From the IMG/VR virus record IMGVR_UViG_3300045988_122766: a stretch of DNA of 40,283 nt; one strand, 5' to 3'. Positions 25,370 through 31,300 of this stretch are shown piece after piece. A program made the translations under genes and the position numbers. Every line of letters begins with the position of its first letter. The stretch's first letter is position 1. This stretch comes from a virus. The notes under the pieces were generated by a model. It was not told the origin of the DNA, did not search any database, and was given only the letters and a program-made list of their open reading frames with translations.

Positions 25370-28300
25370 CTATACCTAACGGATTTGAAATCGAAACAGA
25401 AAATAACAATGTACAAAATAATATAACTATTCCAGACGGTTGGGAAATTGAAAACCCTGCCGACGGCGTTTCTAATGAAAAAACACCCGTATTTACAGGG
25501 TCAATTACTGCTACACCTGAATATACTTATTTTGATAGAATAGGTCAATTGCTACATAGAATTAAAAACCTTTCATTTGGAAGTCTAAGAAATGTCAAAC
25601 ACGCTTGGCAACAAGGGCAAACTAATACACGTATAGGTGAATTAAATTTCAAAGAGCTACAAGGAAACCTTACCGATTTAGAACGTAATGAACTTGACGA
25701 ACTTGAAAACAGAGTTCCATACAATTATGGCATTCAAGAAAATAAAGGTTTGATTAATGATTCAGCATTAGACCCTAATATCAAAAATTTACCAGAACGC
25801 TTAAAAAATTCACTTGCTTACAATACTTATGGTGGTATTGAGTCATTCCCTTTAACAATTGATATTTTAAAAGAGAGCGGAATTGGTGGCGCAATTGGTG
25901 GTGCTGTTGGTACTGTTGGTGGTGCAATTGGTGGTAAACCAATAAAAGGTTTAATGCTAGGTGCTAAACTTGGTGGCGGTAGCGGTGCTTTCAAAAAAAG
26001 TTTTGAACTTGAAGCTGGTCTAGCATATCAAGAATTAAAAAATATGCAAGACGATAACGGAAAACAAATTGACCCTGAATTAGCAAAACAATTAGCCTAT
26101 GGAGTTGGGGCGGTAAATGCGTCACTCGAATTAGTCGGTGCTACCGCTGAACTTGCAACCATACCAGGTGCGGATAAACTTTTAAAAGTTACTAAGGTTG
26201 AAGCCTTGAAAAAAATTATAAAAGATAAAACTATGCAAAATGAACTTATTAAAAAAGGTTCAAAAGCACTAGCAAATTACTATGCTACTGACGCAGAAAA
26301 AATCGGGGCAGAATTAGCAGAAACAACATTAAAGAAAAACGCTCAACAAAAGATTTTAAACACATTAGAAGATACAGCTTTAAATCAAGCAAAAAATCAA
26401 TTGATAAAATCAACCGCAACAGAAAGCATAACTGAAATGTTGCAAGAAAGTTCTAACGTATTTGCGTCTGAATGGGCTAAACAAATTCAAGGCAACTACA
26501 CTGACGCGTTGTTTAATGATGAAGGTATAAATACAAATACTTTCAAACAAGAACTAGCTAGAGTTATTCAAGCTGGGGCAACTGCTTTAGTACCAGCCTT
26601 AACAATTGGTGGAACAGGTACAACAATGACCGCACTTAATATTGCACGTCATAAAGCAAAAATTGACAACATAGACCAAAAAGAAGCTGAAAAAGTTATT
26701 GAGCAAATGACACAAGATGAAAAGGTTGATTACATTAATGATAACGAAGATGTGTTAGAAAAATTAGCGGAAGAAAAATACAAGGATTCTGTCGTTAATG
26801 AAATTACTGATGATACCTTTAAAAAGTTTGTTGATGTTGGTGTAGATGAAGGAAAAGCCTTTGCAGCTGCTCAACTAGTTAAAAGTTTTTCAAAAGGTAC
26901 ATTAAAAGATATTGATTTGATTAAAGATTTTGCAAACAAGCTAACTACTACAAATAAAAGCGTAGAAGAACGCGTATTTGGTAATACGTCAGAAGTTGAT
27001 GAAGTTGCTTTTCAATCAGCTATGTATAAAGATAAGACATCTTTTAGTGTTAAAAACTTTGTTGAAAATGTTATAAATAATCCTGCGGAAAATAAAAAGG
27101 CAAAAAAAACTATTGATAATTACAAATTAAGCATTCCTGCTGGAGTTGTTACACATTCGATAAATAAACACAGTATGACTGCAGAAGATTGGGAAGAAGT
27201 TACAAATAATATTGATAACATTTTTATTGCAAATAAATCTAACAAGAATAATGCTTATAGTCAAGATAATTACAAAGTTGGTATAAAGACACAAAAAGGT
27301 GATTTTTACGCTTTAACTATCGGTTTAAATGATTTTGACAATTACATTTGTACAGCGTTTAAATCAACTGAAAAAGGAGTTGAAAGTTTTGTTACGGATA
27401 AAGGAAAGACTCCTTCTAAGGTGCATACCGAGTCAAGCAAAAACTTGAGTATCGTAGCTCCCCTTAGCAAAGAGTCTAGTAATAACATTATAAACTATTT
27501 AAAGAGAAACTTCAACCCTAAAGAGTTTGCAAAACAAAATATTGAAAAGAATTTTGGTCAATCTGTTGAAGAATTGCAAAACAATTTCACAGATGATATT
27601 AAAAATATTCTTGCTGAAAATGAAATAAGTCCTGATGAATTTGAGATTGAAGATGTTAGACTTTACGGAAGTTACACAACTGGCAAAAACAAAGATACCT
27701 CAGATTTAGATGTAATCGTTCAATACAAAGGTTCAATGAAAGAAGATTCAGCTTTTAATATTTTGAATGATACAAACCTAACAATTACAGATGTCAACGG
27801 AGTTGAAAGAAAAGTTGACATCAACCCTATCAACAGAGAATTATCTGGAACGATTGATGAACACATTGAGCGTATGCACGAAATTGACGGTGCTTATTTT
27901 CAAACAGTAAATACTGCAGGTGCTGAAACATCTGCAGAAATTTCTGAAGCAAAAAAAGAGTGGCTAGAAAAAGGAACTGACAGCAAGTATTTTAAGAAGT
28001 GGTTTGGTGATAGTAAAGTCGTTGACGAAAACGGGAAACCTTTAGTTGTTTATCATGGTTCTTTATGGAAATTTGATACATTTGGAAAGAGTGATGAGTT
28101 TGACTTTTCGTTTAGTCCAAAATTTGCTCATGAATATGCAGCACAGAAAAGTTTTGAACAGGCTCTTGATTTATCGCCTGTGCTTTATAGTGTGTATTTA
28201 AAAGTAGAAAAACCGTTTGATTTCAGAGATGAAAAATCGGTAGATGAATTATTTGCAAAAATTGGGGATAAGGAAATAAGTTTCTTTGGGAATGTTTATA

Positions 28301-31300
28301 CAAAAGAACAGTTCAAAGATTACCTCATGGGTTTAAGTTATGAACATACTGTACCAAAGGCTGATTTTGAAAAAGCACAAATCGGCATGGCTTATAGTCG
28401 TTGGAACGAAAATGTTGAAGAAACGATGTCTAGTGTTGCAGATGCAAAAATTGTTTATAAAAACAAAGATTACTTTGTGGCATTAGATGAGATAGATGAG
28501 CCTCGAAGAAGTCCTTTTAGTAGTGAGCCTGCAGGAAGGGTTGATAGAGATGATGTATATAAACAAGTTGAAAAATTAGCAAAGGATATTGATTTTGCAG
28601 ATGAGTATATTAAAAAAATAACATTAAATACAAATCTTGTTAAAACAACTTATGAAGTAGGAAAAGGTTATGTTAATGAATATACTCCTTATGAACTAAC
28701 TGTCCGTTTAAGAAAAGTTGATAATCCTAAAATTGCAAAAAAAGGTTCTGGTTATGATAATTGGTCTTTTATGGAGTCGTCAAAAGTCGGTGATACTTAT
28801 TTCTTAGATTTTCTTAAAGAGAACGGTTATGACGGATATTATAAACAAGAAAAAGAACAATTAAATATCTCTGTATTTAATTCTGAACAAATAAAATCCG
28901 TTGATAACAGAGGTACGTTTGATGAGGGTAATGCGAATATCTATTATCAATCAGCATATCACGGAACACCTCACAAATTCGATAACTTCTCAACTGAACA
29001 TATTGGCTCGGGTGAGGGTGCTCAAGCACACGGTTGGGGTTTGTATTTTGCAAGCAATAAAGATATTTCAGAGAATTATAGAAAAGACCTTTTAGAATCT
29101 TATAGTAATATGTCTAGTCTTAAATACAAAGGTCAGCCTGTAGAAGAAGAAAATTTGCGAACTGCATTATATAGATTAAAGAAGAATGGCTTAGAAGACG
29201 CTTTATTCTATATAGATAAGAAAATACAGTTTTATAAAGAACAATATGAGCGGGATAAAAAAGAATATTCACGTGTAAAAGGATATTTGGAAACAAAAAA
29301 AATACTTTTAGATAGAGCAGTAAAAGTTAAAAAAATGCTAAAAGACGTTAAACCTGATGATATAGACATTAATAATGGTCAACTTTATGAGGTTGATATT
29401 CCAGAAGATGATGTAATGCTTGATGAAGATTTGCCATTTTCTAAACAATCTAAAAAGGTTCAAGAAGGTTTGAAGTCTTTAACTTCCAATCTTGATGACG
29501 GAATGAGTAAAGAAGCAATCCTTGAAGAAATAGAAAGAATTGAAATAGAAATTGAAGAAAATGAAAATAATGATTATATTGATTTAGGACAAAGAGAATA
29601 TATTTCAGAATGCTTAGAAATGGCATTAGACCACATGAAAGGTAAACTAGCATTAGTCGACATTGAAAATAGCAACTTGAAAGGTCGAACTATTTATAAG
29701 GCAATAAGCGAACATTTAGAGTCTGATGAACTTGCCTCTAAAAAGTTAAACGAGTATGGCATTAAAGGTATTAAATACAACGGTCATCAAGACGGTGAGT
29801 GTTACGTTGTGTTTGATGATAAAGCCGTGCAAGTTTTAAATACGTTTTATCAATCAAGCGATAATGACTACAACATCAACCGATTATCAAATGATAATCA
29901 AGAGGTGATTAAACAAAATGAATTTAATATTACATCAGAACTAGTTACCTACAAAGATTTTATAAAAGAGTTTTCAAATACACTTGAAGACGTGCCAAAA
30001 GATTATGAAATAAATGACTTGCAAAAGGCTTTGAAAGATTTAAAAATAGATAGAAATACACCTAAAACAATTAAAACCCCAATTGGTGATGTTTTTGTTA
30101 CTGCTGATACTATTGAGCATATTATAAGCAGAGAAGATGATAAGACTCGTTATAAATCTATAAACAAAATGTTTATGACGTTAGAAAAACCAACAGTGGT
30201 AAACCGTTCTAAAAATGGCGGAGTTTATTATTATAAGATATTCAAAGAAGAAAACAACACAAAAAATCAAACTGTTGTTGTAAGAACAAATGAACTTGGT
30301 GAAGTTGTTAAAACTACATTTCCAACAAAAAGGGAAAATAATTTCTTTAATAGTTTAAAAAAGGGTGAAACAATTTATGATGTAAAAAACAAAAGACGTA
30401 AGGGTAACAATAATGTTACCCCCGTCAATACCATTATAACAGATAACGCAAATAATTTCAACCCTAATGTGCAATATCAATCTAATTATTCTTCACCTTT
30501 AGAAAACTTACATAAAAGAGTAGAAGAAAAAAGAGCGATAAAAGTTCACGAATACAAAGGCTATTTCACAAAAGAAGCTGAAAAAAATATTATCGGCATT
30601 ATGCAAAACGCCGACGCTTCAACAGTTATTCACGAATTAGGACACGTATTCTTAGACACATTAAAAGACTTGTCAGATATGTCGCCTGAAATTGCTGAAA
30701 AGTACGAAGCTGTAAAAAGAGCTTTTCACATTACAGGCTATGAACTAACTGAACAACAACATGAAGATTTTGCTAGAGCATTTGAAGCATACATTTATAA
30801 CGGAAAAGCGCCAAACAAAACTCTACAAAGTGTATTTACTCAATTAAAAGAATGGTTACGCGGTATTTATGATTATTGGTTAAACAATAATGACGGCTTT
30901 GTTTTGCGTGATGATATCAAAAAGGCTTTTGATGAAATTTTTGATGAACAACCAAAAGAAACAAACAAAACAAAAAAAATCAAAAAGTATCTTGAAACAG
31001 CAAAAAATATAACAATCTCAAATGACGGACTTTTGACAGATAGTCAAGCTCGACATAAAAAGGTTGCGTATGATATAGTTGCGCGTGCAACAGGCTATAA
31101 AAAAGAATATATTCGTATGGTTTTGCATAGCCCTAACAAAATGGCAAAACAGCACGAAGAAATTTACAGACGTTGCAATGAATGTGATGATAAAATTTCG
31201 GCTGGTGGATATCCGCCAGAATGGCTTGAATTTTACGGTGACGCAAGTCTTTATGTAGACGGAAACGATTACATCTTAGCTGAACAAGCATTAAGCGATA

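Follow-up and report, generated by a model that had tools for sequence, protein, structure and literature searches.

The IMG/VR virus record IMGVR_UViG_3300045988_122766, analysed here over its full length of 40,283 nucleotides (hereafter the window), encodes a giant protein of 3024 aa that contains two stretches reminiscent of the active sites of ADP-ribosylating toxins. What kind of ADP-ribosyltransferase (ART) do these stretches represent, and what might a pair of them do in such a protein? A sequence-only reading of the region had taken them for two domains of the diphtheria toxin (DT)/exotoxin A type, with a His-Tyr-Glu (H-Y-E) triad, in a phage core protein. A pair of ART domains is indeed present, and the gene position fits a core (ejection) protein of the virion. 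However, both modules belong to ART-PolyVal (PF18760), an H-Y-D family of the Tox-ART-HYD2 clade, rather than to the toxin family. The giant protein is probably a capsid-core ejection protein, and its ART domains would be delivered into the cell along with the DNA, where they would bind NAD+ and attach ADP-ribose to host targets.

Family assignment and fold of the two modules

The motif YHG[ST] occurs just twice in the giant open reading frame (ORF), at aa 900 and aa 1202. With a gathering score of 31.2 bits, PF18760 ("ADP-ribosyltransferase in polyvalent proteins") matches aa 861-1189 at 58.5 bits (E 1.6e-15), corresponding to module 1, and aa 1190-1559 at 32.3 bits (E 1.9e-7), corresponding to module 2. 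The second match is marginal, and several relatives of the module 2 type, scoring 17-30 bits, miss the threshold. AlphaFold2, which had been suggested as a check and was run here with family alignments, gave confident models for both module 2 (aa 1196-1495; predicted local distance difference test score, pLDDT, 91.9; predicted template modelling score, pTM, 0.81) and module 1 (aa 885-1200; pLDDT 85.6; pTM 0.72). The split beta-sheet of ARTs is found in both, and on these models both modules have the ART fold and lie on the His-Tyr side of the superfamily. Foldseek searches of BFVD returned phage proteins named ART-PolyVal(-like), PolyVal ADP-ribosyltransferase or LPD-containing, with E values down to 8e-14.

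Iyer et al. 2017 (PMC5512222) described ART-PolyVal as an H-Y-D family of the Tox-ART-HYD2 clade with its Asp in strand 5. The window modules resemble this family (also named N4-ART) in fold, in exceeding the Pfam threshold and in their end motifs (WFGDSKVVDENGKPLVVYHG at the start, VFxPxQIKS..NRGTFD at the end). They also resemble it in being present in several copies within a multidomain, virion-associated protein that carries a Pol-beta nucleotidyltransferase and a metallopeptidase-like motif. The modules lie in just such a multidomain polyvalent protein, encoded in a virion-gene neighbourhood. Both are ART-PolyVal members, each with its own deviation. Module 1 has Asp in place of the strand-2 aromatic residue and an insertion of ~170-190 aa, whereas module 2 represents a subtype that is barely at the threshold, with an invariant GxGEGAQ loop, two helical insertions, and Lys or Pro in place of the strand-5 Asp.

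The two modules are not recent duplicates, because BLASTP of one against the other matched only a 12-residue stretch (YHG..KFD.F; E 0.054). When the full-length family alignments A1 and A2 were compared by hhalign, only the N-terminal 50 columns aligned, and a separate sub-alignment was needed to recover the C-terminal relationship. The span marked in the earlier reading, 28051-29079, whose translation opens YHGSLWKFDTF and closes AYHGTPHKFDNFSTEHIGSGEGAQAHGWGLYFASNKDISENY, takes in all of module 1 and just the first 41 residues of module 2, stopping at Y1242.

The pairing of ARTs in a phage core protein had been considered notable in itself. However, ARTs embedded in injected phage polyvalent proteins were already described in 2017 and are abundant in metagenomes, and multi-ART phage virion proteins with up to 12 copies each have been on record since then. 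According to Iyer et al., ARTs are the commonest modifying domain of polyvalent proteins (1-12 copies per protein), where they co-occur with Pol-beta nucleotidyltransferases and metallopeptidases, and polyvalent proteins are predicted to be packaged in the virion and delivered with the DNA. The question of ART-PolyVal chemistry and targets is real, yet not specific to the window. The case also illustrates that a sequence-only reading can pick out real ART active-site motifs.

Module 1

Module 1 starts at the conserved family motif WFGDSKVVDENGKPLVVYHG and ends at VFNSEQIKSVDNRGTFD. It had been regarded as the more divergent copy, but the opposite holds: module 1 is the closer of the two to the family and retains the invariant His and Asp, with Asp917 at the strand-2 aromatic position as its departure. 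Asp or Asn at this column is confined to the window's own branch. The family's acidic residue, Asp1160, directly precedes the strand 277-282/285-290 hairpin of the module 1 model, and its modelled site is the place of the ART catalytic acid and of the "Asp in strand 5" of Iyer et al.

The insertion of module 1 lies between strands 3 and 5 and takes the form of a long beta-hairpin in the model. Among the retrieved proteins it is covered by P0001 alone, which is also the sole full-length homologue (41% identity over 96% of module 1) and carries Asn at the strand-2 column. P0001 is a stand-alone protein of 404 aa whose gene adjoins portal and MuF genes.

Module 2 and its subtype

For module 2, the motifs pointed out in the earlier reading hold up well: the His, the Tyr and the second Tyr are in PARP/DT register, with 10 residues between Y1231 and Y1242. 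In the model, Y1231 falls inside predicted strand 35-38, and the helical insertions occupy module aa 71-134 and 172-272. The G-x-G-E-G-A-Q loop is essentially invariant among 90 module 2 relatives. The catalytic Glu proposed in LYEVD (E1346) had to be abandoned, as it lies in strand 3 in an unconserved column (<60% conserved, while Y1345, V1347 and D1348 reach 60%).

The strand-5 position was located by hhalign of the last 39 columns against canonical ART-PolyVal, in which GIKGIKY pairs with GYDGYYK (probability 96.3%, E 1.6e-9); this profile-profile alignment places Lys1471 at the family Asp position. In the 90-sequence alignment the column holds K in 55 and P in 33 sequences. Across 37 domains sampled from 26 unbiased representatives it holds P (19), K (12), H (2), A (2) or R (2), and never D or E. 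Between strands 5 and 6, the sampled domains share a near-invariant D..SR loop (35/37) and an Asn (37/37). A shorter, NGHQDGEC-type loop with Cys at the Asn position is found in the window and in a small branch comprising P0041, P0042, P0044, P0046 and L009.

The subtype is very large. A profile built from the 90 relatives matched 19,722 cluster representatives at E <= 1e-3, and 12,221 when the cut-off was lowered to E <= 1e-30, in proteins of up to 7,242 aa with up to 9 matched stretches. One homologue, P0041, is fused to a MuF_C domain. The family catalytic Asp is missing from this subtype. It is possible, although we hold the idea only tentatively, that the module-2-type domain is a distinct ART-like family rather than an ordinary ART-PolyVal. 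It would then be the constant element before the HExxH domain, having lost the strand-5 acid and gained the GxGEGAQ and LDWD/D..SR/Asn motifs, with a relocated catalytic residue or another NAD+ chemistry, while the canonical ARTs upstream (0-3) would be swapped as cassettes under arms-race selection. If so, the window branch, which is also without D..SR and Asn, would represent a further derived state.

Exchange of the module 1 core among related giant proteins

A close relative of the window, L006/L008 (IMGVR_UViG_3300045988_174211), encodes a 2899-aa giant protein that is 80-97% identical over most of its length. Blastn similarity between the two breaks twice, once across the ART core of module 1 and once at aa 1526-1706 (29928-30471), in the stretch that separates module 2 from the HExxH motif. 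The first gap is filled in L006 by a compact core of the canonical H-Y-D type, which has all three triad residues (YHGT, AIYFS and NYDGL). The gap, together with the canonical core that fills the same slot in L006, indicates at the level of sequence that the ART core of module 1 is swapped between phages as a cassette whose break points fall within the conserved end motifs. Such an exchange argues that the module is a selected, diversifying effector rather than filler. It also offers a natural comparison suited to functional tests: two phages with 80-97% identical giants differ by a clean swap of the ART core, non-canonical and with an insertion here, canonical H-Y-D in the relative.

The architecture itself recurs. 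Giants on related viral contigs share the order phrog_376 tail protein, phrog_418 internal virion protein, 665-731-aa protein, giant and tail fibre; in L009 and L011 the gene order is as in the window, and the second upstream protein of L011 has a transglycosylase domain. The number of typical ARTs varies from none in the L013/L014 giant (3004 aa) to one in L009 (2752 aa), two in L010 (2981 aa) and three in L011 (3015 aa). Each of these giants has one module-2-type ART and an HExxH motif, and the HExxH comes after the module-2-type ART in all of them. A typical ART followed in tandem by a module-2-type ART is also seen in P0010, P0011, P0066 and P0085.

Comparison with known ADP-ribosyltransferases

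DT and exotoxin A, the diphthamide-specific H-Y-E ARTs, have fold and clade in common with the window modules. As for the motifs of their NAD+ site, module 2 has H1203, Y1231 and Y1242, and module 1 has only H901 and Y928. Unlike these toxins, the modules are without a strand-5 catalytic Glu (Asp1160 in module 1, Lys1471 in module 2) and show no significant sequence or profile similarity to them. The window protein also has no receptor-binding or translocation domains, and its delivery would be by phage ejection rather than secretion. In hhalign, the family profiles reached probabilities of 3% against PARP1 and 1% against DT, neither of them significant, with PARP1 and DT sequences that may be inexact. 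No Pfam toxin family matched at E up to 10, and the module 2 family profile found no ART chain among the PDB sequences at E up to 10. PARP catalytic domains are likewise related in fold and clade, with PARP15 as the best PARP match. The window modules differ from the H-Y-I/L mono-ARTs PARP15 and PARP10 in having no helical regulatory domain, in carrying other insertions and in showing no detectable sequence-level similarity.

These comparisons also bear on whether the modules might instead be NAD+-degrading enzymes (glycohydrolases or phosphorylases), whose injection would exhaust host NAD+ or eliminate defence signals derived from NAD+. PARPs, DT and the anti-CRISPR ADP-ribosyltransferase AcrIF11 score equally well or better as matches. 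Depletion of NAD+ early in infection would also hurt the phage, and a temperate phage, as the integrase marks this one to be, would kill the very cell about to be lysogenised. We regard this as highly improbable and the least probable of the explanations considered. AcrIF11 itself, unlike the modules, is a small protein that stands alone and is made once the phage DNA has entered, and the searches detected no sequence similarity to it.

The functional model closest to the one favoured here is T4 Alt, a virion-carried ART that is delivered with the DNA and modifies host RNA polymerase and other proteins (Iyer et al. 2017, PMC5512222). The likeness lies in an ART being carried in the virion and delivered with the DNA. 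Alt is a separate small protein of a myovirus rather than a domain of a podovirus core protein, and it belongs to the R-S-E clade (Alt/VIP2), so the window modules are not Alt-like. That clade has Arg in strand 1, Ser-x-Ser in strand 2 and ExE, whereas strand 1 carries His in both modules. Iyer et al. 2017 likewise place the ARTs of polyvalent proteins outside the R-S-E clade and group them with protein-modifying ARTs. Both this placement and the lower scores of nucleic-acid ARTs relative to protein ARTs argue against nucleic acids as substrates of the modules, as they are for DarT or Tpt1/KptA. The idea, whether applied to DNA or RNA of the host or to the ends of the phage's own DNA while it is being ejected, appears very unlikely.

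The top structural match of both modules was 9k3a_B, gp27 of cyanophage A4 (A-4L) from the solved pre-ejectosome. A4 gp27 is an ejection protein located physically within the capsid, and the match gives indirect support for the presence of the giant protein in the virion. Pfam and purpose-built hidden Markov models found no ART match in A-4L gp26-gp29. On structural comparison, an ART-like domain that has gone unannotated appears to be present in the solved A4 pre-ejectosome, and this would lend structural support to the view that such domains travel in the capsid core.

Proposed function

In the function that we consider probable, the structural N- and C-terminal parts of the giant protein would carry a string of effectors, namely a Pol-beta nucleotidyltransferase, two ART-PolyVal domains and an HExxH metallopeptidase-like domain. 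The protein would be packaged in the capsid core and ejected into the cell together with the DNA. Its ART domains would then bind NAD+ and modify macromolecules of the host, in all likelihood proteins, with ADP-ribose, and this modification could favour takeover of the cell or blunt host defence, as with T4 Alt and AcrIF11. Family membership, the ART fold, the gene neighbourhood, the recurrence of the architecture in related phages and the exchange of the module 1 core are shown by the analysis. We infer packaging, ejection, enzymatic activity and targets, and activity is the weakest step, being uncertain because each module is without one residue of the H-Y-D triad (D917 in module 1, K1471 in module 2).

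Several findings weigh against this proposal. At the strand-2 column of the module 1 family, 36 of the 39 relatives carry F (13), Y (12), W (6) or H (5), and the window carries Asp917. In module 2, Lys1471 stands where canonical ART-PolyVal has an invariant Asp, and NGHQDGEC takes the place of the D..SR/Asn loop (aa 1471-1489 region, 29764-29820). P0010 and P0011 have AYAGS instead of AYHGS and are thus natural module-2-type variants that do without the strand-1 His. As for the protein as a whole, the argument for packaging in the virion runs from gene position only, and a T7 gp16-type domain was not detected in the giant protein. The structural C-terminal part is without an isolated-phage relative, since tblastn of the C-terminal 824 aa against isolated phages gave no match. 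The literature yielded no experimental characterisation or demonstrated activity for the ART-PolyVal family.

Some of these features would equally suit pseudo-enzymes, with the ART fold of one or both modules serving as a spacer, or as a module that binds NAD+/ADP-ribose or a target, with no transfer chemistry. In addition to the triad residue missing from each module (D917; K1471), module 2 is without the near-invariant D..SR/N loop of its subtype, His-less variants exist in nature, and A4 gp27 contributes its ART-like domain to the pre-ejectosome as a structural element. Against this stands the conservation of the pocket. The His, both Tyr and the GxGEGAQ loop of module 2 are 98-100% conserved across relatives that are only ~30% identical, and the His and Asp of module 1 are invariant. 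Since conservation of pocket residues to this degree would be unexpected for a spacer, such a role is disfavoured, and the pattern argues against the domains being dead. Moreover, mono-ART activity is established for human PARPs whose triad is H-Y-I/L, such as PARP10 and PARP15, the latter being the best PARP match. Pseudo-enzymes are consequently regarded as unlikely, and ADP-ribosylation by an ejected protein is preferred.

Gene neighbourhood and other features of the giant protein

The coordinates of the features discussed are collected in Table 1. The window is a temperate epsilon15-like podovirus. Its gene order runs from small and large terminase, portal, protease/scaffold and major capsid protein through tail proteins (phrog_394 and phrog_376), the phrog_418 internal virion protein and the 726-aa protein to the giant ORF, the tail fibre and the endolysin. 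The giant ORF thus has internal virion protein genes on its upstream side and the tail fibre gene on its downstream side, the position of an ejection protein. The major capsid protein is ~39% identical to those of phiV10/epsilon15-like phages. At ~40 kb and ~33% GC, the window resembles a complete temperate epsilon15-like podovirus or prophage. Besides the integrase, the window encodes a DNA methyltransferase (3855-4562) and a replication initiator (7972-9063), and no tRNA genes were found in it.

Table 1. Positions of the ART modules, their key residues and neighbouring features in the window
Feature	Position	Strand	Evidence
Module 1 (aa 880-1195), ART-PolyVal domain with insertion between strands 3 and 5	27991..28938	+	
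His901, strand-1 His	28054..28056	+	invariant, 39/39 aligned relatives
Asp917, non-canonical, at the strand-2 Tyr/aromatic position	28102..28104	+	register confirmed by hhalign
Asp1160 (GYDG), strand-5 acidic residue of the family	28831..28833	+	D in 38/38 relatives
ART-core cassette swapped relative to L006	28059..28872	+	blastn high-scoring segment pairs end at aa 902 (just past YHG) and restart at aa 1174 (VFNxEQIKS)
Module 2 (aa 1196-1495), divergent ART-PolyVal subtype with GxGEGAQ loop and two helical insertions	28939..29838	+	
His1203, strand-1 His	28960..28962	+	H in 89/90 relatives
Tyr1231 to Tyr1242 (GLYFASNKDISENY), strand-2 Tyr and second Tyr	29044..29079	+	both Y in 90/90 relatives
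Glu1346 of LYEVD, proposed catalytic Glu, rejected	29389..29391	+	inside predicted strand 148-155 (strand 3)
Lys1471 (GIKG), homologous to the strand-5 Asp of the family	29764..29766	+	hhalign
Giant ORF, polyvalent internal-virion (ejection) protein carrying both modules, 3024 aa	25354..34428	+	intact ORF; Pfam domains; neighbourhood
Pol-beta superfamily nucleotidyltransferase domain (aa 750-839), immediately upstream of the modules	27601..27870	+	PF18765, 30.6 bits (gathering score 26.9); PF01909, 23.4 bits (gathering score 21)
HELGH (aa 1760-1764), probable zincin-type metallopeptidase motif downstream of module 2	30631..30645	+	motif search
Genes for internal virion protein (phrog_418) and 726-aa protein, upstream of the giant ORF	22493..25369	+	phrog match
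Tail fibre or tailspike gene with N-terminal adaptor-binding domain, downstream of the giant ORF	34907..35779	+	phrog_1640, phrog_13893 and phrog_1171 match aa 1-170
Integrase	210-1292		

Within the giant ORF, Pfam matches were obtained for PF18760 and the Pol-beta nucleotidyltransferase, and an HExxH motif is present as well. The Pol-beta/MNT-type domain (GS...DLDV) represents a second predicted modifying enzyme in the same ejection protein. At the HELGH region, the Pfam matches to M78 and LPD1 are sub-threshold, and the support for a peptidase is weak; a phrog_9880 match spans aa 1562-1889 of the giant protein. Domains of the PBECR/MuF_C kind were considered at aa ~590-700 (27100-27450) and aa ~1570-1680 (30060-30400), two regions that look alpha+beta by eye, and were dropped, as BLAST gave no significant match to the MuF_C domains of P0041, P0045 and P0046.

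Near the N-terminus, at aa ~175-215 (window 25876-25998), a glycine-zipper-like stretch (GIGGAIGGAVGTVGGAIGG...GAKLGGGSGAF) gave weak matches to Pfam Gly-zipper families, and this part of the ejection protein may insert into a membrane. A megablast search of phage genomes with the giant ORF returned no match. The C-terminal 824 aa have relatives of 66-67% identity in two gut-type metagenome-assembled genomes, on a Melainabacteria contig of 132 kb (L015) and a Muribaculaceae contig of 33.8 kb (L016). The length of the Melainabacteria contig suggests a prophage, and with it a possible host lineage.

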